Positions 770 through 15,345 of a stretch of 38,995 bases of DNA are shown in pieces. The translations under genes were made by a program, and so were the position numbers. The stretch is taken from IMG/VR virus record IMGVR_UViG_3300024581_003864, positions 1 through 38,995 of that record. One strand, 5' to 3'. The notes beneath the pieces are model-generated. The model was not told the origin of the DNA, searched no databases, and worked only from the letters and a program-made list of their open reading frames with translations. The stretch comes from a virus. Position 1 is the first letter of the stretch. Each line of letters starts with the position of its first letter.

Positions 770-823
770 AATCACCCTTACAAATTCATTTATAATTTTA
801 TTTATATATTAATAATAATTTCA

Positions 824-852
824 TTGCAATAAAAATTATTTTAAAATAGCAT
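824..852 (+). promoter_or_regulatory. Putative sigma70-type promoter, copy 1 (ttgcaa-N17-tagcat)
   Basis: ttgcaa at 824-829 and tagcat at 847-852 have 17-nt spacing. They are part of a 62-nt block (824-885) duplicated at 1668-1729. Confidence 0.4.
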
Positions 853-881
853 GAGATTTTAAACCAAGTAAGGAGAAAATT

Positions 882-1385
882 ATGGTTTACAAGACACACC
901 TCGTTGCAAAAATATTCAAATTCAATGCTGAAAAGGCTGGGATAACAATTGAAACTAAAAAAATGAATCAATTAATTTACATTGCTAATGGTATATGTTT
1001 AAGTAAAAAAAGCGTACCATTAGTAGATGAAGCACCGATAGCCCACATAAGTGGCATGTTCTTCCCTATGCTTTGTATAGCAGAATTTAACGACCCCAAA
1101 CTTGATAAGGGTTTCAAACAAGCATCTTATTTTTGCCATTCCGATGATCCCATTTATTCAAATACCTATACAGAACAATATACCTCAACAGAAGATTCAA
1201 AGATCATAAATAATGTTTGGATTGATTTTGGAAATCATACTGTTGCAGATCTAGAAAAATTTACTATGGACACAACCAGTGCTTGGTATCAAACAAGGCT
1301 AAACTATAGAGGACCATTACCTATAAATGCAGTGATTAGTACTGATCTAATAAAAGAGGAATTTAAAAAAAAAGCGTGGAGCTAG
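882..1385 (+). CDS. DUF4065/Panacea-domain protein (PanA-like), paralogue 1
   Basis: SD aaggag lies upstream. Motifs: VAKIFKFNAEKAGITIETKKMNQLIYIANG...PLVDE..., and C-terminal TSAWYQTR, which resembles the Panacea C-terminal 'sPW' motif. It is a paralogue of 1726..2247. Confidence 0.7.
   Translation: MVYKTHLVAKIFKFNAEKAGITIETKKMNQLIYIANGICLSKKSVPLVDEAPIAHISGMFFPMLCIAEFNDPKLDKGFKQASYFCHSDDPIYSNTYTEQYTSTEDSKIINNVWIDFGNHTVADLEKFTMDTTSAWYQTRLNYRGPLPINAVISTDLIKEEFKKKAWS
1365..1373 (+). promoter_or_regulatory. A9 homopolymer; candidate -1 frameshift or transcriptional-slippage site
   Basis: The sequence is ttt aaa aaa aaa gcg, 10 nt before the stop. The -1 frame is open from 1367 to 1657. Confidence 0.35.
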
Positions 1386-1657
1386 CAGATCTCTGGAAAC
1401 GAGAAGTGCACAAAGGGATGCGTGAGTACTTCAGAACTAAAGAGTTAGCACCTTATGATTCTTTAGGATCTGAAACCATTAAATTTGTACGATTCAAGCG
1501 GATAGATGATTCATGTAGTGGTAGGGAGAATAGGGAACATGTAAACGACATTCCCCCTAGTGATCTCCTCCCTATTGTAAGTAAAAGAGTTGTAAACGAG
1601 TTTGAGGAGTGCTTTGCATTACTTGAAGAAGAAATAGAGACACTTGAAGAAGACTAA
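1376..1657 (+). CDS. 93-aa ORF in the -1 frame of Panacea paralogue 1: either a C-terminal extension by frameshift or a coupled partner gene
   Basis: GTG start overlaps the upstream gene by 10 nt, and no SD lies at a usable distance (the nearest gagga is about 17 nt upstream). The C-terminus is acidic (EEEIETLEED). Confidence 0.45.
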   Translation: MELADLWKREVHKGMREYFRTKELAPYDSLGSETIKFVRFKRIDDSCSGRENREHVNDIPPSDLLPIVSKRVVNEFEECFALLEEEIETLEED

Positions 1658-1667
1658 TCAGCAGTAG

Positions 1668-1696
1668 TTGCAATAAAAATTATTTTAAAATAGCAT
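1668..1696 (+). promoter_or_regulatory. Putative sigma70-type promoter, copy 2 (ttgcaa-N17-tagcat)
   Basis: Same hexamers and spacing as 824-852. The 62-nt blocks 824-885 and 1668-1729 match at 58 of 62 positions (hand alignment). Confidence 0.4.
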
Positions 1697-1725
1697 GAAA
1701 TTTTAAACAAAATGAGGAGAAAATT

Positions 1726-2247
1726 ATGGTAGTTTCAGTTAGTACCGTGGCAAAGGAATTCAATAAGCTAGCATGTAAAGAAGGCATGAAATTTGATAAT
1801 AGATTTAAATTGCATTTTCTATTGTATCTAGTGCAAGGAAGATCTTTAGAAGAACAAGAAATCCCCATGATAAATGATCTTGTCTATGCTGGTCCAAATG
1901 GGCCATTTTTTATGGTGCATGAAATTAATCATCTAATGAATGAATTTTATCTCGATGGAGTTGCGATAGATCCAGAGGGACTTTTCTGTACTACTCGCAC
2001 CATAACAAATGATCCGCTTGTGCCCCATTATAAAAACAATGATAATTTGTTAGATGAAGATTTTCAAAGGATACGATGTATTTGGAACGATTTTGCAAGC
2101 TATAGTACTAAAAAATTAAAAGAAACCTTAACTGAAATTGGGAGCCCATGGCACCAAACAAGATATAACTGGAAAGGATCATTGCCTAAGTTCGTTCCAA
2201 TTGATAATGATTTAATTAAAGACTGGTTTAAAAAAAAAGACCTCTAA
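1726..2247 (+). CDS. DUF4065/Panacea-domain protein (PanA-like), paralogue 2
   Basis: Motifs: VAKEFNKLACKEGMKFDNRFKLHFLLYLVQGRSL...AGPNGPFFMVHEI...GSPWHQTRYNWKGSLP...DLIKDWFKKK. The C-terminus aligns with paralogue 1. Confidence 0.7.
   Translation: MVVSVSTVAKEFNKLACKEGMKFDNRFKLHFLLYLVQGRSLEEQEIPMINDLVYAGPNGPFFMVHEINHLMNEFYLDGVAIDPEGLFCTTRTITNDPLVPHYKNNDNLLDEDFQRIRCIWNDFASYSTKKLKETLTEIGSPWHQTRYNWKGSLPKFVPIDNDLIKDWFKKKDL
2230..2238 (+). promoter_or_regulatory. A9 homopolymer; candidate -1 frameshift site (same position as in paralogue 1)
   Basis: The sequence is ttt aaa aaa aaa gac ctc taa. The -1 frame is open from the run to 2399. Confidence 0.35.
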
Positions 2248-2399
2248 GAGATAACACAACATTAGGATCAACATTTAAGGCAACTGTGATTGATGAGGTC
2301 CGCTCAGTTCCCGAAAGCGTCATATTTTTTAATAAGATAGATCTACAAAAAGAAAAACACAGAAAGATGCTTGAAGGAGATACATTTAAGAGTAACTAA
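2238..2399 (+). CDS. 53-codon open -1 frame following Panacea paralogue 2 (possible frameshift extension)
   Basis: Hand translation: RPLRDNTTLGSTFKATVIDEVRSVPESVIFFNKIDLQKEKHRKMLEGDTFKSN, then stop. There is no ATG before codon 44 (an internal GTG sits at 2286), so the ORF track does not list it. Confidence 0.3.
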   Translation, partial: RPLRDNTTLGSTFKATVIDEVRSVPESVIFFNKIDLQKEKHRKMLEGDTFKSN

Positions 2400-2416
2400 T
2401 GGATAGGAGGCGATAA

Positions 2417-2680
2417 ATGATTCATGAACGAATAAGATGCTTGAAATCGGATGACTCAGTCATTGAGATTGACAACTTTAGTTATGTATGCTCTATTTCT
2501 GAGTTTGATGATGATCCAATATTTAAAGATATATATGAAATCATTGATCAAGACGAACTAACAGACAAGGAAAAACAGATCCTTGGAAGAAGAATATTAG
2601 CACAGGCTGTTCTTGGTGATCCTATCAAACATTTTGGTAGTATATATGCATTTGAAAATGCTCTTAGGGAAGGTCTATGA
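2417..2680 (+). CDS. Hypothetical acidic protein (87 aa)
   Basis: SD ggaggcg lies 5 nt upstream of the ATG. I recognised no motif. Confidence 0.55.
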   Translation: MIHERIRCLKSDDSVIEIDNFSYVCSISEFDDDPIFKDIYEIIDQDELTDKEKQILGRRILAQAVLGDPIKHFGSIYAFENALREGL

Positions 2681-2682
2681 GT

Positions 2683-2973
2683 TTAACCAAATAGATCCTC
2701 TTGAAGCAGTAGTTTTTCCATCCCACGCATGTCTTTTATACGTCTCTTTTTAGCAATTATATACCTATTGTATCTAGTTGAACTTCTTGTACCAAATAGA
2801 TCTTTCATTTCTACTGCACCTTCACTTTCTTGATAAATTGCATATGCAAGCCATAGATGGGGCGTACCCTCCCCCTCCAGTAAACGATACGCTGTAGGCT
2901 TTGTGATAGTAAATATATCTACAATTCTATCAACATTCAACATAGATCCTTCTGCCCATTCCTTGAACAACAT
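2683..2973 (-). CDS. Putative helix-turn-helix DNA-binding protein
   Basis: VDRIVDIFTITKPTAYRLLEG looks like an HTH. I prefer Met22 (2973) of the tracked ORF because ggagg-tttaaa-ATG precedes it and this removes the overlap with the upstream gene. Confidence 0.45.
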   Translation of the reverse strand: MLFKEWAEGSMLNVDRIVDIFTITKPTAYRLLEGEGTPHLWLAYAIYQESEGAVEMKDLFGTRSSTRYNRYIIAKKRRIKDMRGMEKLLLQEDLFG

Positions 2974-3013
2974 TTTAAACCTCCGCCAAATATGAATATT
3001 TTGCAAAGAATCG

Positions 3014-3289
3014 TTATTTTTGTCCAGTTTTATCATCTAGATCTGCCAATACATTTATTTTTGGCTCTATTTTTGTCTCGATTATCAATCTCATCCTTTC
3101 AATAGAATATGCAAGTCTATCTAACTTTTCAACAGTCTCATTCATTCGATCGGTACCTAGACCATCTAATTTTTCAATAACCTTATTTATTTGATCCTTG
3201 CTTAGACTGTATGAATGAATTGAAACTAAACATAGAAAAATATCTAAACCTAATAACACCCCAATAGTCAATAACAAAAAAATAATCAT
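3014..3289 (-). CDS. Small single-pass membrane protein with a coiled-coil tail (TM-CC family)
   Basis: N-terminal TM MIIFLLLTIGVLLGLDIFLCLVSI, then heptad-like EKLDGL...EKLDRLAYSIERMRLIIE. The ATGA overlaps the upstream mini-gene. Confidence 0.6.
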   Translation of the reverse strand: MIIFLLLTIGVLLGLDIFLCLVSIHSYSLSKDQINKVIEKLDGLGTDRMNETVEKLDRLAYSIERMRLIIETKIEPKINVLADLDDKTGQK

Positions 3290-3435
3290 TCTACACTCCT
3301 TTCTACTTCTATGATTTCTGAATTTCTTTCAATTCTATCCAATCTTTTGTTAATGATTTTGAATGATGTATCCGACCACATAAATAAAGAAATTAGTGCA
3401 ACTATAATAACAGGTGCATAAATTTCAAAATCCAT
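3286..3435 (-). CDS. 49-aa membrane mini-protein (TM-CC family), not in the ORF track
   Basis: Strong SD (gaaaaaggaggtgaaagta-ATG). Translation: MDFEIYAPVIIVALISLFMWSDTSFKIINKRLDRIERNSEIIEVERSVE. The stop overlaps the start at 3289. Confidence 0.55.
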   Translation of the reverse strand: MDFEIYAPVIIVALISLFMWSDTSFKIINKRLDRIERNSEIIEVERSVE

Positions 3436-3523
3436 TACTTTCACCTCCTTTTTCTGACTAATATCATACTTAATATTTTAATAACCAAATTTTTCTCGCA
3501 ATCGACCTTAGGGGAAAAACTGT

Positions 3524-3552
3524 TTGCACATTAACGATCTAACTGCTATAAT
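3524..3552 (+). promoter_or_regulatory. Promoter ttgcac-N17-tataat giving a probably leaderless recombinase mRNA
   Basis: The -35 is at 3524-3529 and a perfect -10 at 3547-3552. The ATG at 3559 is 6 nt after the -10, and there is no SD. Confidence 0.55.
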
Positions 3553-3558
3553 TTACCC

Positions 3559-4242
3559 ATGAAAATTTACGCATATTTGAGAGTTTCAACAAGTCAACAA
3601 GAAGAAAGTGGAGCAGGGAAAGCAGCTCAATTAAAATCTTGCCAAGATTGGGCTAGAGCTAAAAAGGAAACAATTGAAAAAGTTTTTACCGAGAAGGCGA
3701 TAAGCGGATCAGCTCCACTAGAAAAAAGAAAAGCTCTAAAGAATGCCATTGAAGCCCTTAAAAAGGATGACGTTCTTTTAGTTGCAAAAAGAGATAGGCT
3801 TGGAAGAGATATATTAAATTTGAATTTAATAGAATCTTTAGTTGAGAAGAAAGAGGCAAAGATTATCTCCTGTGCTGGCGAAGGTACAGACTCTACAAGA
3901 TCATCCGATAAACTGATACGAAGCGTCATTGATGCAATTTCAGAGTTCGAAAGAAACAGGATAAGAGAAAGAACACGAGAAGCACTTGCAACTAAAATAG
4001 CCAAGAACGAACGAACAGGACGTATACCATTTGGATTTAAGCTTTCTGAAGATGGAATTCATATAGAGGTGTGCGAGATTGAGAAGGAAACTCTTTTGAT
4101 GATAGGTCGATTAAGATGGTCGGGAATGAAACTTAGAGAGATTGCTGGGGCTATGAATGAAACAGAATTCCTTAATAGAGGAAGAAAATGGAGAATATCA
4201 TCTATACATAATATGCTAAAAAAAACGCAGATTAAGTTTTAG
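3559..4242 (+). CDS. Small serine recombinase (resolvase/invertase family)
   Basis: N-terminal MKIYAYLRVSTSQQ catalytic-serine motif, VAKRDRLGRD, SEFERNRIRERT, and a C-terminal HTH-like region. At 227 aa it is too short to be a large serine integrase. Confidence 0.9.
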   Translation: MKIYAYLRVSTSQQEESGAGKAAQLKSCQDWARAKKETIEKVFTEKAISGSAPLEKRKALKNAIEALKKDDVLLVAKRDRLGRDILNLNLIESLVEKKEAKIISCAGEGTDSTRSSDKLIRSVIDAISEFERNRIRERTREALATKIAKNERTGRIPFGFKLSEDGIHIEVCEIEKETLLMIGRLRWSGMKLREIAGAMNETEFLNRGRKWRISSIHNMLKKTQIKF

Positions 4243-4270
4243 ACCGCTAACTCTCTCTCCTAAAACAGTT

Positions 4271-4311
4271 TACCCGTCATTTTAACACAGCTACCCCGTC
4301 ATTTTAACACA
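4271..4311. repeat. Tandem 19/20-bp direct repeat (tacccgtcattttaacaca / taccccgtcattttaacaca)
   Basis: Copies sit at 4271-4289 and 4292-4311, in the 71-bp gap between the convergent recombinase and array gene P1. Confidence 0.85.
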
Positions 4312-4313
4312 AA

Positions 4314-5126
4314 TCAACCTTTAGCGTCACCTTTGCGTAACTCTCCCATTAATTTAGTGGCAAGTGCATTGGCGTCACGATATCCTTTACTATCTACATT
4401 GGTGAATTTATTTAATTTGTCTCTAAATTTAGAAGCTCTTTCCTTTTCTCGTTCTAGACTTTCAAGAATACACAAACGAGTTACTGAAATGTTCAAAAGT
4501 ATTGGAGATTCTAATTTATAACCTATCAATAGCAAATCATCCTCATGAAAATGATTGGTGAATGCAAATGAACACTTAGATAATAATACATTAACATCTG
4601 AAGTTGCTTTTTTAAAATCTATTGTTTGTAGTGACCTAAAATAACTTCTTAATTCAATAATCCTATCTCCTTCAACATATTCCTCTAGCGATTCATATTC
4701 CCTTTTTGGCTTTAAGAAGTCTAATACATCATAAGAATTATTAAATTCCTTAATAAGGTGAGTGAATTCTTTTCCGCTTGTTCCGTTTCCGTGACTATTC
4801 AAAGCATTTTGTACTGCACTATTAAATTCTGCCGCACGATCATTATCATTAAAGATATGTGTAAAATATGAGTACCTAATGACTAAGCTCTTAAGAACAG
4901 TTCTTAGCGTGTCTATTGATATTGTATCAATACATTCTTTATCATTAAGAGCCATAAAGCAACTATCATACATATTGTATGCTACTGAAAGGACATCTTT
5001 ACAATAAGGATTACCCCTACAACTATCATCAAGGTTGTTTATGGTACGTGCCATATTGCAAACAAGTCTAACCTTCCCCCTTTCTGCAAGCTCTTCAAAT
5101 GTTTCTTTTTCGGTTTCTGTTTTCAT
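4314..5126 (-). CDS. Array family member P1 (acidic helical protein, two repeat modules)
   Basis: SD aaggag. Modules: ...MALNDKECIDTISI...LKSLVIRYSYFTHIFNDNDRAAEFNSAVQNAL and ...FHEDDLLLIGYK...LLNISVTRLCILESLEREKERASKFRDKL. Confidence 0.8.
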   Translation of the reverse strand: MKTETEKETFEELAERGKVRLVCNMARTINNLDDSCRGNPYCKDVLSVAYNMYDSCFMALNDKECIDTISIDTLRTVLKSLVIRYSYFTHIFNDNDRAAEFNSAVQNALNSHGNGTSGKEFTHLIKEFNNSYDVLDFLKPKREYESLEEYVEGDRIIELRSYFRSLQTIDFKKATSDVNVLLSKCSFAFTNHFHEDDLLLIGYKLESPILLNISVTRLCILESLEREKERASKFRDKLNKFTNVDSKGYRDANALATKLMGELRKGDAKG

Positions 5127-5225
5127 CTATTATCTCCTTTAATCATGTTGACAAAGTGAACATATTTCCTTCATATGTTTAAATTTTTAAGAAAAATGAA
5201 CATATTTTCGCACCATCATGCACAA

Positions 5226-5305
5226 GAAAAGCCTGTTTTGTGTGCACGATACACGAGTCATGCACAAGAAAACGCTATTTTGTGTGCACGATACAACTAT
5301 TTGTT
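5226..5305. repeat. Two 38-bp direct repeats, each an imperfect palindrome, plus a third partial copy to 5334
   Basis: tcatgcacaagaaaaGCCTGttttgtgtgcacgataca (5226-5263) and tcatgcacaagaaaaCGCTAttttgtgtgcacgataca (5268-5305). A partial copy tttgtgcatagataca lies at about 5319-5334. Confidence 0.85.
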
Positions 5306-5528
5306 ATGTTTGTGCATAGATACAATCATATAAAATACGCCCCATGTCATAGAAACGCACATCACGCATGCCACTATAGACTCGCATATACATTTAGCTA
5401 TTTCAACATTCTCACTCATACCAATCTACCCATTTTCGTGCCCTCATGCAAAAGGTTCAATCTCTTATTAAATACGCAAGAAATAAAGAAAAAATAATTA
5501 TTACAATTGTTTCTCCTGTTTCACTCAT

Positions 5529-6371
5529 CTATAGATCGTCCCACCTAATTCCACATATCTTCTCGGCCAAACTGGTTAAAGCAATATAAAGCTCGTGAAC
5601 TTCTTTAATAAGAATACACTTCAAGCTCTTCTTAAGCTCGGAAGCCCTTTTTCTTTCCCCTTCTAGTCTTTCGAGAATGCACAAACGAAGAATTACCATT
5701 TGTAAAAGTTGTGTTGATTCTACACGAGAAAACGCACTTAATAACTCATCATCTGAAAAAAAATTAGCATAAGGCAACGCACACCTTCGTATCAATGTAG
5801 ATATAGTTTGTTTTGTGTCTCTCTCCTTTACTTTTACTGTACCTAAAAGATTTCCCTCCACTATTTCTATTGTGTCTAAAAAATTTCGTTCCATTTTTTT
5901 ACATCTAGTTTTCGCAATGAATTGTTCTAAAGAATCATACCTCTCTGGCGACTCTCCCATTGAATAGAACATATCCTCTTCATACTCTGTTTCTAGAAAA
6001 AAATTCAGAGCTTTAGAAAATAGATTATTGTCAAAACATCTCTTCTTTAAAACGCCACGTATTCCCGAATTAAACTCCATTGCACGATCAGCATCGTTGA
6101 AAAAATGAGTAAAATATGTGTATCTTATAACAAGTGCCTTGAGCACTGCGTCATTTATAACACCTGATAGCAGTTTGAGAGACTCATTGTCACTGAGTAA
6201 CATAATACAATCATTAAACATCGAAATGGATGCACGTACAACAGTGTTAAGATAAAAATCCATTGAACGGTTTTTTATGGCTTTGTCTACCGTTAAACAC
6301 GCATCACATATAAGGCGTAAATTGACTTTTTCTATAAACTCATCGAATGTTTTAAGTTCTGTTTTGCTCAT
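5529..6371 (-). CDS. Array family member P2
   Basis: Closest paralogue of P1: LKALVIRYTYFTHFFNDADRAMEFNSGIRGVL and FFSDDELLSAFSR...LLQMVILRLCILERLEGERKRASELKKSL. Confidence 0.8.
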   Translation of the reverse strand: MSKTELKTFDEFIEKVNLRLICDACLTVDKAIKNRSMDFYLNTVVRASISMFNDCIMLLSDNESLKLLSGVINDAVLKALVIRYTYFTHFFNDADRAMEFNSGIRGVLKKRCFDNNLFSKALNFFLETEYEEDMFYSMGESPERYDSLEQFIAKTRCKKMERNFLDTIEIVEGNLLGTVKVKERDTKQTISTLIRRCALPYANFFSDDELLSAFSRVESTQLLQMVILRLCILERLEGERKRASELKKSLKCILIKEVHELYIALTSLAEKICGIRWDDL

Positions 6372-6403
6372 AGCTCAAGATCCTTTAACAGTTCCCCAAC
6401 ATT

Positions 6404-6625
6404 TCATTTATCTTTTTTATCCATCTGTTCCCTCAAATATAAAAGCTCCTTCTCTAGATCATTCATTCTGGACTTGTTCATTTTTATAAAATCGTAGTGA
6501 TAATCAAAAACCTCTAAAATTGATTTGGTTGTATCAATAGTGTATTTGTGGTTTCTATAAACGATTGCATTAAGAACACAAAAAGAAATTGATGACAATA
6601 GAGCACAAAAACAAATATCAACCAT
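6404..6625 (-). CDS. Small membrane plus coiled-coil protein (TM-CC family)
   Basis: TM ICFCALLSSISFCVLNAIV, then MNDLEKELLYLREQMDKKDK. There is an 8-nt overlap with the upstream gene. Confidence 0.5.
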   Translation of the reverse strand: MVDICFCALLSSISFCVLNAIVYRNHKYTIDTTKSILEVFDYHYDFIKMNKSRMNDLEKELLYLREQMDKKDK

Positions 6626-6884
6626 CCCTTTGATTCTCCAAAACGTTAACTCTTCCCTCTAACTTAACAATCATTCTCTCCAACTCTCTATTTTCTTTCT
6701 CTAGTTCATAAGTCTTATCCTTCACCCTATAGAAAAATTTAAGTTCGTCCATTATAAAGTCCATATCTTTTTTTATCACAAGCCTATCTTCTTTGAACAG
6801 TCTAGAAAGTGATCTGCGGTTATAAATCAAATCGCAACACTGAATAAACACCACCAACACACAAACTATATTCACAAACATCAT
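6618..6884 (-). CDS. Small membrane plus coiled-coil protein (TM-CC family)
   Basis: TM MMFVNIVCVLVVFIQCC, then YELEKENRELERMIVKLEGRVNVLENQ. I chose the start at 6884 (Met13 of the tracked ORF) because aaggtgg lies 9 nt upstream. Confidence 0.5.
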   Translation of the reverse strand: MMFVNIVCVLVVFIQCCDLIYNRRSLSRLFKEDRLVIKKDMDFIMDELKFFYRVKDKTYELEKENRELERMIVKLEGRVNVLENQRDG

Positions 6885-6885
6885 T

Positions 6886-7176
6886 TTACTCATCCACCTT
6901 ATTTTCAAGCTTCTTCTCAAGAATTTCTATTACACGATCTAGTTTAATTGTAGCAAACTTCTGCTGAGTCAAATAAAAAGAACCCAGTAGCAATATAGCA
7001 ACTACACAAAGAGCCCTATTGATAGAAACCAACGCCTTACATGTTGAATGTACGGAATTTTTAACCAAACGTGCACCGCAATGCCTACACACATTATCGC
7101 CCTTATCAATTTCCCCCTCGCAAAACCAGCACCACACTTTAAACCATCGGTACATTTTATTGATAAATTTACACAC
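6886..7176 (-). CDS. Zinc-ribbon plus TM plus coiled-coil small protein (TM-CC family)
   Basis: GTG start with strong SD gggaggtg 6 nt upstream. CWFCEGEIDKGDNVCRHCG (CxxC-x10-CxxC), TM ALCVVAILLLGSFYL, then IKLDRVIEILEKKLE. Confidence 0.55.
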   Translation of the reverse strand: MCKFINKMYRWFKVWCWFCEGEIDKGDNVCRHCGARLVKNSVHSTCKALVSINRALCVVAILLLGSFYLTQQKFATIKLDRVIEILEKKLENKVDE

Positions 7177-8032
7177 TATTCACCTCCCATCTATCATTTA
7201 AACTTTTTAACATACTGGCAGATTGCTCATATAATCGTTTAAACCCATCTTCATCCATACCATCACCAAGAATTTTCTTAAGTTTCTTTTCAAAAATAGG
7301 TATACTATCTATCTGTATCTCAAGCTCTTTCATCTCCTGCAAACGAATTCCTATTGAGTTAAAAATAACGACATTTTTTTTAGATTTGAATATATCTAAC
7401 AGTGAATCAATGTTAAAAAAATCTATATAATGAGATATGCATATCTCATATACGTTGTACACTAATTCATTTAATGATCCATCATGTTCAGAAATTTCAG
7501 TAATTATATGTGATAACGCATCCAAACCAGCTAAATTGCCATTCTCATTAAGGGTAATGAACCCTACAGCACTTGATACATTTCTTAAAAGTGTGACGTT
7601 AACTTCCTCTATGTTTTCTAAGACATTTCTCAAAGGAACAAAGAACATTTCTTTTGGTTTTTTATGTTTTTTTAGTATACTGTAAACACCATTACATAAT
7701 TCACGTGTCCTTTCATTATTTTCAAGAGCCTTATCTAAATACACATATCTAGTAACAGCGAACTCAATTGTTTTATCATTAAGACACCCATCCAATACCT
7801 CTAAAAAATCTTTATCACTAATGAAGACATAGCAACAATTCAATATAATTCTTGTATATTCATGCATCTTTAAATTAGTACGTGCGTCTTTTTCATTATA
7901 ACCAATTATATCGCAAAGTTTTTCCTTAGAAGAACGAAACAATAAATCAATTTGACAATATCGCTTTGTTAGTATAGCTATTCTATCCATACAACGAGAT
8001 TTCGCAAGTTCTTCAAATGTCTTTTGCTTCAT
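7169..8032 (-). CDS. Array family member P3
   Basis: N-terminal MKQKTFEELAKS (compare P1 ETFEELAE, P2 KTFDEFIE). Module FISDKDFLEVLDG...IEFAVTRYVYLDKALENNERTRELCNGV. I prefer the ATG at 8032 (SD ggag, 6-nt spacer) over the tracked TTG at 8044. Confidence 0.7.
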   Translation of the reverse strand: MKQKTFEELAKSRCMDRIAILTKRYCQIDLLFRSSKEKLCDIIGYNEKDARTNLKMHEYTRIILNCCYVFISDKDFLEVLDGCLNDKTIEFAVTRYVYLDKALENNERTRELCNGVYSILKKHKKPKEMFFVPLRNVLENIEEVNVTLLRNVSSAVGFITLNENGNLAGLDALSHIITEISEHDGSLNELVYNVYEICISHYIDFFNIDSLLDIFKSKKNVVIFNSIGIRLQEMKELEIQIDSIPIFEKKLKKILGDGMDEDGFKRLYEQSASMLKSLNDRWEVNSV

Positions 8033-9056
8033 CTTCTTCTCCAAGGTATAAGCACATAAAATAATCTTCTTTCACAAGTGCATCTTTCACACCATTTTCA
8101 ACAAGCTTTGCCTGTTTCTCTATATTAGGCTTATTTACCTTATCAAAAAATTCTCTCAAAGTCTCTTCACTTCTTCCAATATCCTCCCAAGCCTTTATCA
8201 AATTCTTGCTAAGTTCAACAGCTCTTTCTTTCTCTTCAAAATATGTTAGTAAATAAATCCTGTTCCCGATAATACGTGAAATCTTATCAACAAAATCAAT
8301 TGAGAATTCATTTTTATGCAAAGAATTATTGTCGAGATCCTTGTTAGGCACGATCAAAGATCTAATAAGTTCATCATCTGAGAAATTCAATATACAATCA
8401 GCTAGAACACCCATTGTATTCCAGAGAAAACACCCAATTTTTTGAAGGACAAAACAACGGGAGAATTCGAACTTACTATCAGATTCTTTAATAAAAGATA
8501 CGTTCTTTTCTATTAGTTGTAAAAAAAGATCTAACATAGTCAGCGTCATTCTTTTTGAATGATTCCTATGATCTTCTTCACACTCAACACCATACCAAGG
8601 ACGTGCGAAATACCTATCCCCACCCTCATGTAATCTATACTCTTTTTTAATCTTTTCAATTTTATCTATGGTTTCAATGGGATCTTTCTTACCCTCATAT
8701 TCAATAAACATCTTCTCTAGTCTTCTCGCTCTCTCATAATCATTAAAATCCAGATCAGCCCTGCATATTCTATCAAAGAACGATTGCCAAGCAAGCTCAT
8801 GATTAGTTTCTTTCAACAGGAGAAACGCATTGTCATCAGAAAGAATTGTGAGAGCTGAAAAAAGAGATATTTTTACATTCTCCTCATAGGTCGATAACGA
8901 TTTTTCATCTGTAACAAGTTTCTTTACTATTCCTAGATTAATAAAAAGATCTGTATACATTGGAGCAATCCAGCGAACAAGAACATCTTCAATCATATTC
9001 TCGTATGGATCTGATCGACCCTTGTACTTTGCGTAATCAAACGCTTTATTAAACAT
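8013..9056 (-). CDS. Array family member P4
   Basis: Modules ILSDDNAFLLLKE...FFDRICRADLDFNDYERARRLEKMF and NFSDDELIRSLI...ISRIIGNRIYLLTYFEEKERAVELSKNL, with an acidic tail GEEDEAKDI. The ATG at 9056 overlaps the P5 stop (ATGTTTAA). Confidence 0.75.
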   Translation of the reverse strand: MFNKAFDYAKYKGRSDPYENMIEDVLVRWIAPMYTDLFINLGIVKKLVTDEKSLSTYEENVKISLFSALTILSDDNAFLLLKETNHELAWQSFFDRICRADLDFNDYERARRLEKMFIEYEGKKDPIETIDKIEKIKKEYRLHEGGDRYFARPWYGVECEEDHRNHSKRMTLTMLDLFLQLIEKNVSFIKESDSKFEFSRCFVLQKIGCFLWNTMGVLADCILNFSDDELIRSLIVPNKDLDNNSLHKNEFSIDFVDKISRIIGNRIYLLTYFEEKERAVELSKNLIKAWEDIGRSEETLREFFDKVNKPNIEKQAKLVENGVKDALVKEDYFMCLYLGEEDEAKDI

Positions 9057-9939
9057 CTTCTTCCTCTTCCTGTCCCCAATACATCTCATTCACGTACTCA
9101 ATTCCACGTGTCAGCTCACCCATACCAAAGCATTTATAAAACTCTGTTTTCATAATTATATTATGTACACTAGCATTACTTAAAAAAGCCCTTAACTTGT
9201 GCCTATCCATACCGTGCTTTACAAGCATGATCGTAATAAGTCCAGAAGATAAATTCAGTGCCCTGTCTAATTGCTTAGTCCACACAAGCCCATCAACTCT
9301 AAATCCAATAATTTTAGCGATTTTTCTTGCTAAAACATCATCCATACAACCTTTTAACGCCCCGATCATCTCTTCATCAGTAAACGAAAGTAAAGATTGC
9401 TCTACGAGCTCGTGAACAAGCATACCAGCATTTAAAATATTCTTACTACACCTGCCTTCACCAATTTCAATCATTTGCGTTGCTGTTTCTAGCAATCTCA
9501 AATCTTCAAACTTCCTTGTCGATACCCATTCATCATACGAATTTGCACCATATGTTTGAAACTCATTTACATTTGTTGCTTGATCAAGCGTACCGAGTAG
9601 CCCCTCAAACTCACCGTCTGATTTTTCAGTGAACGCTTTGTTAATTGAATGGGATCTTTCAACCTCATTGAAAATCTTTTTAAGAACAACCACTCTATCA
9701 TAAATAGGGACTGGGTGGCCTAAATTGATTAGATCCTCATCATTGAAAAGCCTTTCTCTATTTGATACGGCAGTCCCTACCACCTCACATATATTAGAGG
9801 GGCTTTTTATACCATTTATCGGAAATGTTAGCATTTTATATTCTAAGATATCAGATTTTAAAACATCCCAAATATCGTGCAGATGCTTGAAGCTTTCCCT
9901 TAATTCCTTTTTATCCTCAAATTTATAATCCATACTCAT
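9049..9939 (-). CDS. Array family member P5
   Basis: SFTDEEMIGALKG...KIAKIIGFRVDGLVWTKQLDRALNLSSGL, with an acidic tail GQEEEEDV like P4. SD aaggag. Confidence 0.7.
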   Translation of the reverse strand: MSMDYKFEDKKELRESFKHLHDIWDVLKSDILEYKMLTFPINGIKSPSNICEVVGTAVSNRERLFNDEDLINLGHPVPIYDRVVVLKKIFNEVERSHSINKAFTEKSDGEFEGLLGTLDQATNVNEFQTYGANSYDEWVSTRKFEDLRLLETATQMIEIGEGRCSKNILNAGMLVHELVEQSLLSFTDEEMIGALKGCMDDVLARKIAKIIGFRVDGLVWTKQLDRALNLSSGLITIMLVKHGMDRHKLRAFLSNASVHNIIMKTEFYKCFGMGELTRGIEYVNEMYWGQEEEEDV

Positions 9940-10065
9940 GTTACATCTCCTTTAATTCTACAAAGATCCCTTTTGTCTTTTTTTTGTCGTTTAAATGGTT
10001 AATGGGCTACACAACTTCAAAGTGTAACCCATACTAACATTAAATTTTATTTAAATGTATTTTAA

Positions 10066-10800
10066 TTATTTAGATTCATCCATAAGTTTATCTAACTCCC
10101 TCATAGACTTATTATAACAGGACATTGCTTCACGTTCTTCATCATAATCCATAAACGCATCTAGCAAGTCAATTGCCCCACGAAAGACATATAAACCAAA
10201 TTCATACATCTCACTGAATTCAGCGTTTTTTGGCATCTTAGATTTTTTTAGATGAACCTTATATTCGTCCTCACGTAATTCATAACAATCACCAAGCCTT
10301 GCTACGAAAAAATCATCAAAAGAATATAGACCACCATCAATCGTTTTACGGATAACATTAAAATTATAAAGGTTTTTTTCTACTTCAGCTCTTATAAACT
10401 TAAACCTTTTTTTTACCCCTTCGCAAAATGCTTCTCGCTCCTTAAGTATATCATCTAAAACGTTTTGCAATTCTTTTGCCCTTTCCTTCTCTTCAAATGC
10501 CACATCCAAAAAAACGATTCTGTTTACAAGACTAGCCAAAATCACCGTATCTGAAGACTCACACTCAAGAAGAGCAAGCCTTTTCAAATCATGATCTAAA
10601 ATCACATCTAACGAATTGCTCAGACATGTTACAATATCGTCCCTTATTTTTTTAGCATCCTTATTATATTTGTAGTGGTTAATAAATGTACTAGTGTAAA
10701 CGCACCATTTGTAAATCTCCCCACACATTTCATCAGTGAAACCCATTGTATCGCATATTTCCTTTAACACATCTATGTTAACTTTCGGCATATTCTTCAT
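10066..10800 (-). CDS. Array family member P6
   Basis: VILDHDLKRLALLE...ILASLVNRIVFLDVAFEEKERAKELQNVL. SD aaggag. Confidence 0.75.
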   Translation of the reverse strand: MKNMPKVNIDVLKEICDTMGFTDEMCGEIYKWCVYTSTFINHYKYNKDAKKIRDDIVTCLSNSLDVILDHDLKRLALLECESSDTVILASLVNRIVFLDVAFEEKERAKELQNVLDDILKEREAFCEGVKKRFKFIRAEVEKNLYNFNVIRKTIDGGLYSFDDFFVARLGDCYELREDEYKVHLKKSKMPKNAEFSEMYEFGLYVFRGAIDLLDAFMDYDEEREAMSCYNKSMRELDKLMDESK

Positions 10801-10823
10801 ATTTAATCTCCTTATAATTTCAA

Positions 10824-11498
10824 TTAACTCTGTTCCAGTTTAATGAAGAGAGCTATCAAATCACGCAAGATAACAACACCTTCTTCAAACGATTTATCTA
10901 ATTCCTTACCGCTCCTGTTACCCTCCTTAACGATAGCTCTATAATCTCTAATTAGCTCTAGATACGTGTTATAATGAATTCTCTTCTGCCACATCTCTAA
11001 TGTATATGATTTTGATGTGAACTCATTCAATTCATCATCATCATATTTTTCTGAGTATCTTTTGGAATAATCGCCACATCTATAATTAAACTCCTCAATC
11101 TCATCTTCAACGCTCCAATATCCTTTAAGATATTTTTCTATCATAGAAGTAAATTCACGATATCCATCCGACCATTTATAAACAGTTTTGAATAGTGCTA
11201 GGCGGTCAACCACCTCATCAACAATAATCTCTTTATATCTGTCTTCACAAATAAACGACTGTAAAAGTGCATATACTAACTCATGATTACTGAAAAATTG
11301 AACAACACATCTTATTGAACTGTCAATTTCATCACACAAGTAATCAAGTTCATCACACACTTTTTCAGACATAATTTTTTCTACTTTGCTTATGATCCTT
11401 GCGTATTCTATGTAGTCTGCTGAAAGCTCAATAGCCGTACAGTTGACTTTATCTTGAACGCACTTCATAAAATCTAAAAAAGTTTTTTCTCCACTCAT
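10824..11498 (-). CDS. Array family member P7 (most divergent)
   Basis: N-terminal EKTFLDFMKCV, then FFSNHELVYALLQ...VVDRLALFKTVYKWSDGYREFTSMIEKYL. SD aaggag. Confidence 0.6.
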   Translation of the reverse strand: MSGEKTFLDFMKCVQDKVNCTAIELSADYIEYARIISKVEKIMSEKVCDELDYLCDEIDSSIRCVVQFFSNHELVYALLQSFICEDRYKEIIVDEVVDRLALFKTVYKWSDGYREFTSMIEKYLKGYWSVEDEIEEFNYRCGDYSKRYSEKYDDDELNEFTSKSYTLEMWQKRIHYNTYLELIRDYRAIVKEGNRSGKELDKSFEEGVVILRDLIALFIKLEQS

Positions 11499-11522
11499 AT
11501 TTACACTCCTTATAATTTTAAG

Positions 11523-11687
11523 TTATTTTTTATCTTCTTCTTTCAAGTCTCTATCCATCTTCTCTAAGATAGCCATCTGGACAAAATGCTTAATACTAAT
11601 CTCGTTGTCAGCACAATGAATCTTTAATTTTCTATGGAATTCTTTCTTTAGAAGGATTGATATAATTTTTTCATCTTTGCTTTGCAT
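11523..11687 (-). CDS. Ribbon-helix-helix (CopG/Arc/ParG-like) DNA-binding protein, 54 aa, not in the ORF track
   Basis: SD aggag. Translation: MQSKDEKIISILLKKEFHRKLKIHCADNEISIKHFVQMAILEKMDRDLKEEDKK. This fits the pattern of a beta strand followed by xxLHxKLKxxAaxxxxSxxxxhxxAI. It is the first gene of the array operon. Confidence 0.65.
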   Translation of the reverse strand: MQSKDEKIISILLKKEFHRKLKIHCADNEISIKHFVQMAILEKMDRDLKEEDKK

Positions 11688-11720
11688 TGAACTGATCTCC
11701 TATTCTTTAATTTTTCCAGT

Positions 11721-11749
11721 AGTTTATATGTTAACCTATTTTCATGCAA
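11721..11749 (-). promoter_or_regulatory. Promoter ttgcat-N17-taaact for the RHH gene and paralogue array
   Basis: On the minus strand the -35 is at 11749-11744 and the -10 at 11726-11721, about 35 nt upstream of the RHH start. Confidence 0.45.
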
Positions 11750-11966
11750 GACTATTTTGTTTTTTATTTTTTTTCATTTTAACAGACATTCTTACCAAGG
11801 GAATGGGGATGACCCCCAACCCTAAAAAGGGGGGCATTCCCTCTTAAGAACTCTTATAGATTCTTAAAATTATCTTGTCCTTGTTTTAAAGTTTTTTTTT
11901 AACATGAAAAATTGACTTCACATATAGTTGAGAAGGCTAAAATTGAGAAATCCAAAAAATACAATT

Positions 11967-12051
11967 TTCTCCATGATCAACGTGGGTTTTCTCCATGATC
12001 AACGTAAATTTCTCCTTGATCAACGTAAATTTCTCCTTGATCAACGTAAAT
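11967..12051. repeat. Four 21-22-bp iterons (ttctcc[a/t]tgatcaacgt[ggg/aaa]t); candidate replication origin
   Basis: Units start at 11967, 11989, 12010 and 12031, and the last two are identical. They sit immediately 3' of the Rep-like gene and next to an A/T run. Confidence 0.8.
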
Positions 12052-12068
12052 CTTTTTTTGAATAGGAT

Positions 12069-12857
12069 CTATTTTAACTCTTTGTTTACATGAAAAACCC
12101 ATTTAATCCCTCCTGTTGCATTTGGATGCTTTTCCCAATTTAGAAGAAGTCCAAGTTTGATGAGGATGTTAATATCTTCTAGTATCCTATTATTTGTTCT
12201 TGTTTTACGTGCCTTTAGATCCTTTTCAAGTCCAAGAATGGTAGGTAAATTCTCTTCATTGATCTCAACCCTATATCTTTTTGAACTGATTTCCCTAAAC
12301 ACCCACTCTAACAATATGTTAAGACTTTCTGTTACCCTGTTGTGATGTCCAGCTGAAGTAATAAGCCTCCTATTGAGATCAATGGGAAACTCTACAAATT
12401 TTGAATCTATTTGATCCGTGAAGATTGGGTTTAATGAGATATCTATTTCGTTTGGGCTGAATTTGTTTAGGGTGATTAGTGGTTGGCAATACTTTATCGT
12501 TCGTTTATCTTCTTTTTCAATATGCCTGTTATATTTTATTAAGAAACTTTTGTTGGCAAGACTATAGGTAACATTCTTGATAATTTTCATACTAGCACCA
12601 GAATAACCAGATTCCCCCAAATAAGCCTTACAGAGATCTTTTTGCGTGGTAATTAGGGTATAGGATAGCAATTCTTCTCTTCCACAACTCACCAACTTAT
12701 TAGGTTTTTCGCTTGGGTCTTTGGCATGAAGAAGAAGGGCTAGCGTGTGCACAAGCTTGTTCTCAGAGGGGGACAATTTTATCCCCCCAATTTTCAACTT
12801 CTGATCAATCAGATGGCCAGATACCCTATACGAGTTTTTATTTTTCGAGGATTCCAA
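12069..12857 (-). CDS. Putative replication initiator / origin-binding protein
   Basis: The call rests on context only. The gene is translationally coupled to the helicase gene upstream and abuts the iteron array. It has a TTG start and no motif I recognise. Confidence 0.45.
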   Translation of the reverse strand: MESSKNKNSYRVSGHLIDQKLKIGGIKLSPSENKLVHTLALLLHAKDPSEKPNKLVSCGREELLSYTLITTQKDLCKAYLGESGYSGASMKIIKNVTYSLANKSFLIKYNRHIEKEDKRTIKYCQPLITLNKFSPNEIDISLNPIFTDQIDSKFVEFPIDLNRRLITSAGHHNRVTESLNILLEWVFREISSKRYRVEINEENLPTILGLEKDLKARKTRTNNRILEDINILIKLGLLLNWEKHPNATGGIKWVFHVNKELK

Positions 12858-14301
12858 GAATATTCGTCCAATTTACTGGTTTAAACTTATTCTCCATAAA
12901 ATGAAATTCCAACATAGTAGAAAACTTTTTCATTCCATCACGTGCTTTCGAAACTGTCAAACCGCAAAGCGAAATGCCATTGTCTGCAAGATCTTCTATT
13001 ACAAGAGGCGGTACATCTTTATGCCTCCCTACTAAGCCCCTACTTTTCAACATATAACATACCTCATCAGCTGAAGCTTTAGAGAGAAGGGTCACAACGT
13101 CAGGGGTATAAGATCCTCTGGCGGAGCCCATAACATCGGACATATCACCCCCCCACTTCTCCTTACTTGTCGGCTTTCTTGCCTCAGAGATAACGATTAC
13201 AGGTTCTTCAATGTAGTTAAGTGAATTTCTAATTTTCTTCACCTCTCCTATCCTCCATTTATCAAGTTCATTTTCATTAAAAATTTTGAGTGAGGGATCT
13301 GCTGGAAATACTTGAAGATAATCGATAACGACGATAGCTTTAGAGGTTCCCGATCTCCTCTTAACTTCCTCGATGTAATTGATAATCATGTTAGAATCTA
13401 TGAAGGGGCATTCTGTTTGATCGATAATTTTCAACCTATCGCCAAAACCCTCTAGGATTGCATCTGCCTCTTTCATTCTTTCTATTTCTTCACGTGTAAA
13501 AAATGCTCCGTCAATGGTTGCTTGTTCCAGAGTGCCGAATAAATATTGCCTATAGGTCATTTCTGACAAATTTAACGACATTCTCATAAAAATTTCTTGA
13601 GAAGACATCTCTAACGACACGTAGATTAGGCATGCGTCTTTGTTTTCAAGCAATGCCTCTAATCCCATTTGAACAGTCAAGGCAGTTTTCCCCACATTAG
13701 GAGCTGCCGCAAGAAGCATCAACCCCCTAAGACCAAGAAGGTTTCTGTTGAACATCTCCAAGGACTTTAAGGACAGCCCTAAACGATCATTTCCCCTGTG
13801 TTTTTTGAGCATGTCATTTTTATCTTTAATCCTGTCTGATACATGCGTATCTTGAATGGAAATGCTAGCTATCTTCTTCTGCTTTTCAATTTCTTTGGAA
13901 ATCTCTTCTAATAACACCAATCCATCAATATTCTCCTCTGAAACCTTTAATTGGGCTTTTTGAGCAACATCACCAATAGATCTAAGAACGGTCTTATCCT
14001 TCAAAATAGCAATATATTCCTTTATGTTTGCTGAAGTTCCGCAATATTGTGCTAATCCAACAAGATATCCAGCTCCACCGCACTTATCTAACGTTTTCTT
14101 AGATTTTAGGGTTTCTAATAGCGTGACAGTTTCTACAGGTTTCCCCTTTTCATGCAGTGTTTCCATCGCCTTGAAAATACTCTGATGTTCTTTCATGACA
14201 AAATCACATTCCTTTAGGGTTTCCATCCCATACTTTAGGTTTTCTTTATCAATGATCATAGCCCCGAGGGTCATCATTTCCGCTTCTTTCGAATAGTTCA
14301 T
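12838..14301 (-). CDS. dnaB: DnaB-family replicative DNA helicase
   Basis: N-terminal EAEMMTLGAMIIDKENL, Walker A AAAPNVGKTALTVQ, Walker B VVIDYLQ, and a size of 487 aa. Confidence 0.9.
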   Translation of the reverse strand: MNYSKEAEMMTLGAMIIDKENLKYGMETLKECDFVMKEHQSIFKAMETLHEKGKPVETVTLLETLKSKKTLDKCGGAGYLVGLAQYCGTSANIKEYIAILKDKTVLRSIGDVAQKAQLKVSEENIDGLVLLEEISKEIEKQKKIASISIQDTHVSDRIKDKNDMLKKHRGNDRLGLSLKSLEMFNRNLLGLRGLMLLAAAPNVGKTALTVQMGLEALLENKDACLIYVSLEMSSQEIFMRMSLNLSEMTYRQYLFGTLEQATIDGAFFTREEIERMKEADAILEGFGDRLKIIDQTECPFIDSNMIINYIEEVKRRSGTSKAIVVIDYLQVFPADPSLKIFNENELDKWRIGEVKKIRNSLNYIEEPVIVISEARKPTSKEKWGGDMSDVMGSARGSYTPDVVTLLSKASADEVCYMLKSRGLVGRHKDVPPLVIEDLADNGISLCGLTVSKARDGMKKFSTMLEFHFMENKFKPVNWTNILGILEK

Positions 14302-14438
14302 CCTATATCTCCTTTATTTATACATAGAAATTATTTGAAAACACAAAAAACCTCCCATGACTGGAAAGTTTTTGCGAATTTTTTGTTTGGGTTTGATTTT
14401 TTTTGAGATTTTTCATTTATCCGTTCTTTTTTTGTTGT

Positions 14439-14514
14439 GCTAATCCAACAGAACGGTTAAACTACTTTTCAGTTTATTGTTGTAGTTTTGTTTTTTCGGT
14501 TCTGTTGGATTAGC
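14439..14514. other. Long extended hairpin (16-bp perfect stem plus 7-bp inner stem)
   Basis: gctaatccaacagaac (14439-14454) pairs perfectly with gttctgttggattagc (14499-14514). The inner stem is aaactac (14459-65) with gtagttt (14482-88). ccgttct (14421-27) can alternatively pair with agaacgg (14450-56). Confidence 0.7.
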
Positions 14515-14529
14515 AAAACGCATATTAAA

Positions 14530-14558
14530 GGGAAGTTTTACCGCTTCCCTTTTTTTTT
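14530..14558 (+). terminator. Rho-independent-type terminator reading on the plus strand (possibly bidirectional)
   Basis: gggaag-ttttaccg-cttccc followed by T9; A3 lies upstream. Confidence 0.55.
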
Positions 14559-14699
14559 GTAAAAACCAAGGTAAAATAAACCAAAGATATTTATCAAGAA
14601 GTTTACTTTTTCTGTGCGGAAAAAATCTAAATTTTGTATAATTCAATAGTATTTGAAAATGCAATCGTTCATTGTGCATCGCATTTCTCATATTTACGT

Positions 14700-14730
14700 G
14701 GGGGCGTTCATTCGTCCCCCTCCTTTTTTT
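14700..14730 (+). terminator. Rho-independent-type terminator reading on the plus strand
   Basis: gggggcg-ttcatt-cg(t)ccccc, then tcc and T7. Confidence 0.5.
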
Positions 14731-14839
14731 GTTTAGATAAATGTTTTGGTGTGATAATTTACTTGAGTCGTTGGGAGTAAAGGTTATGTTTAATTTCCAA
14801 GTTAGGTCATGACGTTTAACCCATCGCATTATCGATAGT

Positions 14840-14863
14840 GGGGTAGGCTTTCTACCCCTTTTT
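14840..14863 (+). terminator. Rho-independent-type terminator reading on the plus strand
   Basis: ggggtag-gcttt-ctacccc followed by T5. It lies 3 nt from the ssb stop, but the U-tract is on the opposite strand to ssb. Confidence 0.5.
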
Positions 14864-14865
14864 AA

Positions 14866-15225
14866 CTAGAATGGGACTTCTTCTTTCTCATTATTTTCTT
14901 CATTGGAATCAGGTTTTTTCTCTGAAGGAGCAAAGGTTATGTAGAATGGGTTCACCTTAATATCAGCTTTTGGCTCTCCAGATTTTGACAAATATGCACT
15001 CAAAACAAATTCACCCATCACAATTATACTGCTTCCCTTTTTCAAGTAATTCAAGATGGGGAACATTGTCCTTTTGTCCTCCCATATGATCACCTTCACC
15101 CAAACAGGGTCTTCATCCTTCCGTATTTTTGTAGCCATCGAGAACGTGGTATATGATCTTCCGTTGTTTGTTTGCTTAATATCGGGATCTCTCCCTAAAA
15201 ATCCGATAAGTGTAGCTGTTCGCAT
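14866..15225 (-). CDS. ssb: Single-stranded DNA-binding protein
   Basis: OB-fold N-terminus MRTATLIGFLGRDPDIKQTNNGRSYTTFSMA, and an acidic tail ending EEVPF (like the canonical D-D-D-I-P-F tip). Confidence 0.9.
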   Translation of the reverse strand: MRTATLIGFLGRDPDIKQTNNGRSYTTFSMATKIRKDEDPVWVKVIIWEDKRTMFPILNYLKKGSSIIVMGEFVLSAYLSKSGEPKADIKVNPFYITFAPSEKKPDSNEENNEKEEVPF

Positions 15226-15345
15226 AATCTCCCTCTATTTAATCTTAAAATCTCACTGTAATTAAATTGGGTTTTTTGATCTACATAATAAAAAGGGGGC
15301 ATATACAATACGCCCCTAACATGATCATATTAATCAATAAAATGT

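Follow-up and report, generated by a model that had tools for sequence, protein, structure and literature searches.

Seven paralogous genes in one phage operon

The stretch of DNA analysed here, referred to as the window, is the whole of the virus record IMGVR_UViG_3300024581_003864, 38,995 nt in length. An exact overlap of 99 nt between its two ends (1-99 = 38897-38995) implies that the assembly is circular or complete at ~38,896 bp, and the window is a complete circular tailed phage of ~38.9 kb. Between positions 4314 and 11687 its minus strand carries an operon of eleven genes, seven of which, designated P1 to P7, encode the divergent helical proteins that are the subject of this report. 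The features of the operon are listed below from its first gene to its last.

11523-11687, minus strand: putative RHH-type (ribbon-helix-helix) protein of 54 aa, first operon gene; AGGAG motif upstream
10824-11498, minus strand: P7, 224 aa, the most divergent member; one module at aa 47-125 (nt 11124-11360); KTF N-terminal motif
10066-10800, minus strand: P6, 244 aa, the bridging member; module at aa 44-122 (nt 10435-10671)
9049-9939, minus strand: P5, 296 aa; modules at aa 41-109 and 164-240 (nt 9613-9819 and 9220-9450)
8013-9056, minus strand: P4, 347 aa; modules at aa 48-124 and 216-292 (nt 8685-8915 and 8181-8411)
7169-8032, minus strand: P3, 287 aa; module at aa 47-123 (nt 7664-7894) and a weak second one at aa 195-255 (nt 7268-7450)
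6886-7176, minus strand: S3, zinc ribbon and transmembrane segment; sub-threshold matches to Pfam DZR / Zn_ribbon (E 2e-5 to 1e-4)
6618-6920, minus strand: S2, N-terminal transmembrane segment and coiled coil, read from the sequence
6404-6625, minus strand: S1, N-terminal transmembrane segment and coiled coil, read from the sequence
5529-6371, minus strand: P2, 280 aa; modules at aa 32-111 and 180-257 (nt 6039-6278 and 5601-5834)
5127-5528, minus strand: non-coding gap of 402 bp between P2 and P1, with two 42-bp repeats and a hairpin
4314-5126, minus strand: P1, 270 aa; modules at aa 35-112 and 168-244 (nt 4791-5024 and 4395-4625); AAGGAG motif upstream

An earlier, sequence-only reading of this DNA had described P1 to P7 as seven consecutive minus-strand genes that take up about 7 kb. 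All seven open reading frames (ORFs) are present with the boundaries given by that reading, and public gene calls agree with it in the length of every one of the seven proteins. The array is interrupted, however: S1-S3 (6404-7176) separate P3 from P2 and the 402-bp gap separates P2 from P1, and the figure of 7 kb does not hold either: the seven genes amount to 5.9 kb, or ~15% of the 38,896-bp genome, while the whole operon measures 7.4 kb. P5 overlaps the start of P4 by 8 nt, P4 overlaps the start of P3 by 20 nt, and S1-S3 overlap P3 and one another by 8-35 nt. A purine-rich motif resembling a Shine-Dalgarno sequence lies upstream of 10 of the 11 operon genes, including all seven family genes, S2 being the gene without one. 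P1-P7 are intact ORFs of 224-347 codons in a region of 33% GC, and the combination of intact frames with Shine-Dalgarno-like motifs indicates that each copy has apparently been kept functional.

The proteins had also been called acidic, which applies in a mild form only, with isoelectric points of 4.7-5.9 and net charges of -2 to -15. Cysteine makes up 1.4-3.3% of P1-P7 compared with 1.0% in the other long ORFs of the phage, and several of the family cysteines are located in helix 1 of the module described below. No signal peptide and no transmembrane segment could be read from the sequences of P1-P7, which are predicted to be cytoplasmic all-alpha proteins. S1-S3 yielded no match to the module profile with either a hidden Markov model (HMM) or hhalign; S1 and S2 may be paralogues of each other.

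The proposal that the seven genes constitute one paralogue family is confirmed by similarity far above chance in BLASTP, profile, leave-one-out and hhalign comparisons. BLASTP connects P1 with P2 (1e-36), P2 with P3 (3e-9), P4 with P5 (3e-5 over 255 residues) and P3 with P6 (1e-3). P6 joins the two subgroups, being found by a profile of {P1,P2,P3} at 4e-8 and by a profile of {P4,P5} at 1e-4. In a separate test, an HMM of the 78-aa module was applied in a leave-one-protein-out design against 2,280 decoys consisting of other window ORFs and shuffles. P1/P2, P3, P4 and P6 scored 16-32 bits in this test, compared with a decoy maximum of 7-10 bits. The two modules of P1 scored 16.1 and 5.6 bits and those of P2, when both P1 and P2 were excluded from the model, 29.1 and 16.1 bits; the first module of P3 scored 32.1 bits and the second 8.8 bits (about 8-9), the modules of P4 16.5 and 16.3 bits (decoy maximum 7.7), and P6 29.2 bits. 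The individual modules of P5 score poorly (9.2 and 7.9 bits), although both are in register and the whole protein reaches an E of 3.8e-5. For P7 the HMMER score of 9.9 bits equals the decoy maximum, and the hhalign comparison with a P7-free profile gives a score of 27.2 (P 2.7e-4, 76 columns), compared with at most 19.7 for 100 shuffles. The paralogy of P1-P6 is strongly supported by the BLASTP, profile and leave-one-out comparisons, and the membership of P7 is moderately supported.

Identity between the copies ranges from 16 to 32%, which suggests that the copies are old rather than recent amplifications, or that they diverged very fast. The more similar copies lie next to each other (P1-P2, P4-P5), and the ribosome-binding regions in front of P7 and P6, like those in front of P5 and P1, are repeats of one another (families D12 and D20). 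Both observations fit a history of serial tandem gene duplication.

The unit shared by the seven proteins had been described as a module of about 70 aa; its measured length is ~75 aa, arranged in four helices. Its internal duplication is confirmed by comparison of the N-module profile with the C-module profile (hhalign probability 89%, E 2e-6, 68 columns). The doubling had been assigned to P1, P2 and P4 and is found in all three; it is also clear in P5, the second module of P3 is weak, and in P6 and P7 a second module is not significant. The module consensus is ..FSDxELLxxL....VxRxxxLxxxFxxxERAxELxxxL. Conserved positions comprise the hydrophobic core, [ST]-D-D/x-E at a helix start, one nearly invariant Arg and the helix start [ED]-R-A-x-E, and the S-D-D-E motif matches a classic helix N-capping box. 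These shared residues look like parts of a scaffold, and outside the conserved scaffold positions the sequences of P1-P7 vary. In agreement with the sequence-only reading, neither the conserved positions nor the library searches contain a catalytic or known-domain signature.

AlphaFold2 predicts for P2, from an alignment of the seven paralogues only, a structure of 13 helices with a predicted local distance difference test score (pLDDT) of 81.6 and a predicted template modelling score (pTM) of 0.81. The model consists of two four-helix modules, a helical linker, and one N-terminal and one C-terminal flanking helix. The isolated module is likewise predicted as four helices, with a pLDDT of 92.5. 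Foldseek found no counterpart for the P2 model in PDB or BFVD (best E 0.2-0.5, TM ~0.2) or for the isolated module in PDB (best E 1.3), and the top entries, all non-significant, were designed helical repeats, LpnE (Sel1) and SNAP. The predicted module would thus represent a new four-helix fold that matches no solved structure.

Searches for relatives of the family

The family had been regarded as uncharacterised, and so it remains: nothing credible was found for P1-P7 in Pfam, PHROGs, NCBIfam, PADLOC or the PDB sequences, in line with the Foldseek results for the P2 model and the module. P1-P6 have no match in PADLOC-DB. A match of P7 to a CARF model of that collection (20.8 bits, E 5.6e-5, 49 residues) was rejected as spurious, the fold class being different. 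Matches to dynein linker 'FYFLSNDELLEIL' (E 0.05) and to PI3K (E 0.16), obtained in a search of PDB sequences with module and full-length profiles, were attributed to chance. No antirepressor domain (ANT/KilAC, Bro-N) was found in P1-P7 by Pfam or PHROG, no TPR or Sel1 match by Pfam, and no toxin family matches P7 or any other member. DNA mimics of the anti-restriction type (Ocr, ArdA) do not provide a model, the charge of -2 to -15 across 224-347 aa being too low and no structural match being found in PDB.

An exhaustive hmmsearch of 1.84 billion representative proteins with the module profile retrieved the seven window proteins and seven repetitive proteins; in a database of this size, a distance like that between P4 and P1 would be enough to put a relative below the threshold. 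The seven repetitive proteins are artefacts whose scores are summed across many partial matches: TPR-like proteins (some with 'LERAKELL'-type helices), simple repeats and one further protein, whose C-terminus resembles the DUF1641 signature. A word-indexed homologue search with P2 returned P2 itself only. Scans of IMG/VR, GTDB genomes and JGI metagenomes, for which single proteins or the P1-P3 alignment served as queries, detected no relative, and comparison of the module HMM with 76 loci around DnaB homologues, a small search space, gave no family member even at E < 1. A literature search likewise found no report of this family. The family therefore looks private to this contig in present data.

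The phage as a whole is poorly represented in the databases. No close phage is found in GenBank, the best portal match having ~27% identity across one third of its length; P2 and the window DNA have no match in phage and plasmid collections, and DnaB has no plasmid match at 1e-20. Of ten window proteins looked up in a collection of 15 billion proteins, seven form singleton clusters and the other three are absent from the collection. Most other phage proteins scanned, among them most of the structural proteins, have no Pfam or PHROG match, and for this reason the orphan status of P1-P7 is not special in itself; the orphan signal probably reflects in part a poor sampling of the phage lineage.

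Candidate regulatory sites, replication module and probable host

The first gene of the operon gives several weak but concordant indications of an RHH-type DNA-binding protein. Its 54-aa product matches a PHROG Arc-like repressor weakly (E 0.005), Pfam HicB and RHH_10 below cut-offs (E 0.03-0.06, 14-15 bits), and PDB entry 2KEL ('Uncharacterized protein 56B') with E 0.0044 over 43 residues; we take 2KEL to be the RHH regulator SvtR of SIRV1. The size and hydrophobic pattern of the protein also fit the RHH fold.

The sequence-only reading had placed the promoter of the operon near 11749, a site which fails a consensus scan. An extended -10-like motif, TGTTAAAAT, at 11775-11783, ~85 nt upstream of the start of the RHH-type gene, is a better candidate. 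It is contained in an 11-mer, TCATTTTAACA (TGTTAAAATGA on the minus strand), which occurs three times in the genome compared with 0.10 occurrences expected:

11774-11784, minus strand: candidate promoter/operator 11-mer TGTTAAAATGA, upstream of the RHH-type gene, containing TGTTAAAAT
4277-4309, minus strand: two further copies of the 11-mer, within 22-bp tandem repeats (families D11 and D17), between the stop codons of P1 and of the recombinase gene

The 11-mer could be a promoter/operator or a recombination site, and no motif resembling TCATTTTAACA was found beside homologous recombinases in other loci.

The gap before P1 contains two tandem 42-bp repeats (5216-5295, family D6) that are 92% identical, each an imperfect palindrome (GTGCACACAAAA..TTTTCTTGTGCA). 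Its folding z-score is -2.9, no Rfam family matches it, and a hairpin at 5335-5360 coincides with a terminator-like match at 5360-5335. The palindromes look like operators, and the presence of repeats and hairpin in this gap suggests that P1 may be a separately regulated unit.

Upstream of the operon lies a replication module with relatives in other elements, and beyond P1 a recombinase gene. These and the other recognisable genes of the phage are as follows.

12069-12857: X12069, 262 aa, adjoining DnaB; the DnaB/X12069 pair spans 12069-14301
3559-4242: small serine recombinase, 227 aa, adjoining the P1 end of the operon
Encoded in the window: P22-like portal, large and small terminase subunits, capsid protein
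Encoded in the window: ERF recombinase, YqaJ exonuclease, SSB, RusA, DnaB helicase

Homologues of DnaB are 40-52% identical to it, and the named ones come from metagenome-assembled genomes (MAGs) of Chlamydiae, Parachlamydiaceae, Verrucomicrobia and Victivallaceae. The elements that carry them also contain integrase, ParA, HTH_17 and YhcG genes, and X12069 is homologous to the gene that follows DnaB in ~20 related loci. The serine recombinase has a homologue of 222 aa on a Chlamydiae MAG contig (E 2e-59). The GC content of the related loci, 37-40%, is similar to that of the window. Because DnaB, X12069 and the serine recombinase are common to MAG elements of Chlamydiae and the wider PVC (Planctomycetes-Verrucomicrobia-Chlamydiae) group, the host is probably a Chlamydiota/PVC bacterium, and the element is possibly a phage-plasmid. 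A literature search found no report of a tailed phage of Chlamydiae, and we know of no tailed phage isolated for Chlamydiota, only of small Microviridae phages. No tRNA gene was found in the window, and Rfam gave no match.

Immediately downstream of X12069, between it and the operon, are four direct repeats of 21-22 bp (TTTCTCC(T/A)TGATCAACGTAAAT, 11966-12061), which look like the iterons of a replication origin. A GC-rich hairpin (GGGAATG...CATTCCC, 11803-11845) is located in the AT-rich spacer between these repeats and the promoter region of the RHH-type gene; its z-score of -1.45 is not unusual.

One related locus is particularly informative about the position of the operon. This locus, L032 (Ga0315284_10006658, 1-16448), shares with the window DnaB, a 419-aa homologue of X12069 and two homologues of the structural genes at 22416-25483, in a different gene order. 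Sequence reading also points to a terminase-large-like ORF (no Pfam match), an SNF2-like helicase, and tyrosine-integrase-like and ParA-like ORFs. Behind its DnaB/X12069 pair, L032 lacks the array, and the position is taken by a CopG-type RHH gene together with a toxin-antitoxin-like pair, Gp49/HTH_37. The idea of an accessory slot, advanced in the sequence-only reading, is supported by this arrangement: the content of the L032 slot, together with the 76 loci lacking a family member, indicates that the slot following the conserved replication module holds variable cargo, which in this phage is the array.

The location of the operon could be taken to mean that P1-P7 serve replication or maintenance: the RHH-type protein would regulate copy number or partition in the manner of CopG/ParG, and P1-P7 would act as helicase loaders, replisome organisers or partition adaptors. 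Control of plasmid copy number is a common task of RHH proteins, the operon starts ~280 bp downstream of the iteron-like repeats and the DnaB/X12069 pair, plasmid-like elements of Chlamydiae carry this pair as a conserved module, and a scan of window proteins revealed no helicase loader and no ParA/ParB. We nevertheless consider such a role improbable, since the ~20 related DnaB/X12069 loci contain no family member (E < 1) and the replication module thus works without the family. Seven diverged copies would moreover be hard to explain in a housekeeping function, and the RHH proteins of the window and of L032 have no detectable similarity to each other.

A cargo slot could also hold genes that benefit a lysogen. 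In such a scenario the array and the three membrane proteins would protect the carrier against other phages or mobile elements by superinfection exclusion or defence, and would not be directed at functions of the host. The L032 slot contains a toxin-antitoxin-like pair, and the left arm of the present genome carries two antitoxin-like genes in addition to the small serine recombinase. The single-pass membrane-protein genes of the operon overlap P3, an arrangement that exclusion systems typically show; P1 lies behind a separate gap with operator-like palindromes, a position that a moron expressed in a lysogen might have. Against this stand the absence of a noteworthy PADLOC match (the CARF match of P7 being of a different fold class) and of any nuclease, NTPase or other effector domain. 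Neither a repressor nor a tyrosine integrase that would show lysogeny was identified, and the operon is co-directional with the recombination and replication genes and directly follows them. On balance we regard a lysogen-benefit role as rather unlikely.

The antitoxin-like genes of the left arm are two paralogous genes with a Panacea (SocA-like antitoxin) domain, both on the plus strand (882-1385 and 1726-2247), with a 93-aa ORF (1376-1657) between them; together they are possibly phage-borne toxin-antitoxin modules. Inversion of parts of the array by the adjacent serine recombinase, in the manner of an invertase or shufflon, was rejected, as no convincing inverted repeats flank any segment.

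The structural genes form a contiguous block at 18-36 kb. P22-like podoviruses inject several helical proteins, and most structural proteins of this phage are unannotated, so that P1-P7 might be imagined as internal or ejection proteins that are packaged in the virion and injected. This is a very improbable role for an array that lies outside the structural block, behind the replication genes and under its own regulator, with no BFVD match to any virion protein. Within the block, a 619-aa virion structural protein (27102-28961, phrog_3287) has a weak amidase-family match at its N-terminus and might be a virion-associated lysin; the window proteins that were scanned include no recognisable endolysin or holin.

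Function and comparison with known systems

These results lead us to propose, tentatively and with a probability of roughly 0.35, that P1-P7 are diversified non-enzymatic binding proteins for host takeover or anti-defence. The family itself arose by internal duplication of a ~75-aa four-helix module, followed by serial tandem duplication of the gene and then by divergence. According to the model, one stable helical scaffold would present seven different surfaces, and the protein that is sequestered or redirected, of the host or of a competitor, would differ from copy to copy. Repression of the operon promoter by the RHH-type protein itself would probably limit expression, by analogy with Arc acting on ant in P22 and with Aca acting on anti-CRISPR operons. 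The proposal is favoured by the paralogy and internal duplication, the confident all-helical models, the seven intact ORFs and the lack of signal peptides and transmembrane segments in P1-P7, as well as by the lack of any enzyme or known family, by the variable cargo slot, and by the RHH-type first gene with its rare promoter/operator-like motif upstream.

Several considerations weigh against the proposal. The role as binder or antagonist rests on architecture and context, with no homologue of known function. There are no orthologues, so diversifying selection is not measurable, and conservation of core and helix-cap positions is expected of any helical protein family. The AlphaFold2 models of P2 and the module were built on shallow alignments of 7 and 12 rows, respectively. 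The host assignment relies on three genes shared with Chlamydiae MAG elements, which could themselves be mobile, and the three membrane proteins of the operon are left unexplained by a model of soluble binders. The arms-race interpretation of the sequence-only reading is plausible, and the identity of 16-32% could equally be the product of old duplications as of fast divergence. A more specific version, in which a tailed phage or phage-plasmid of obligately intracellular Chlamydiota carries an effector set of new fold whose seven copies are each adapted to another target in the bacterium, or even in the eukaryotic cell around it, is a long shot.

It is rare for a small phage to retain as many as seven old and diverged gene copies, which here account for ~15% of a 39-kb genome. 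The family is not found elsewhere among ~15 billion predicted proteins, and its confidently predicted fold matches nothing solved, all of this on the basis of a single metagenomic contig without relatives. If P1-P7 are diversified binders, they would constitute a compact natural case of one scaffold with many specificities in phage-host conflict, and a way to study tailed phages of Chlamydia-like bacteria, whose biology is hardly known. Should they instead be replication or maintenance factors, they would be informative on how chlamydial plasmid-type replicons work.

Among known systems, the immI region of P22 (arc-ant) offers several parallels. The phage described here has a P22-like portal, a putative Arc-like RHH gene of ~54 aa heads its small accessory operon, and the downstream products, as in P22, are non-enzymatic and presumably protein-binding. 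It differs from P22 in having seven paralogues instead of one gene, no ANT/Bro or fold match, and no identified second repressor resembling Mnt. Anti-defence operons of the anti-CRISPR type (Acr, with the associated regulator Aca) are similar in that orphan non-enzymatic proteins occupy an accessory slot together with a small DNA-binding regulator. Acr proteins, however, are usually 50-150 aa long and mutually unrelated, and aca usually encodes a helix-turn-helix protein and lies downstream, whereas the present array consists of paralogues of 224-347 aa behind an RHH-type gene.

Islands of polymorphic-toxin immunity genes likewise contain tandem, strongly diverged small helical paralogues, and here too a recombinase gene is adjacent; in contrast to such islands, the array is located in a phage directly after replication genes, with no toxin gene or known immunity family detected. 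TPR, Sel1 and SNAP-like proteins are all-alpha and built of repeated helical units, as P1-P7 are predicted to be. The TPR and Sel1 proteins differ in forming arrays of 34-36-aa hairpins, compared with a four-helix module of ~75 aa that is present at most twice, and no match to them is significant.

Finally, the array may be compared with the gene accordions and multigene families of viruses, such as poxvirus K3L, MGF360/505 of African swine fever virus and the amplification of tifA in T4 (PMC9391042). As in those cases, tandem duplication has produced an array in the accessory region of a virus genome, the gene amplified there being a host-interaction gene. Accordion copies are recent and near-identical, unlike the copies described here, in which identity is 16-32% and every ORF is intact. 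Multigene families have been described chiefly in large viruses of eukaryotes and in jumbo phages, and are not known from a podovirus-like genome of 39 kb. If the reading of P1-P7 as an effector set in a Chlamydiota phage should prove true, the array would be the equivalent, in a phage, of the multigene families that large eukaryotic viruses possess.

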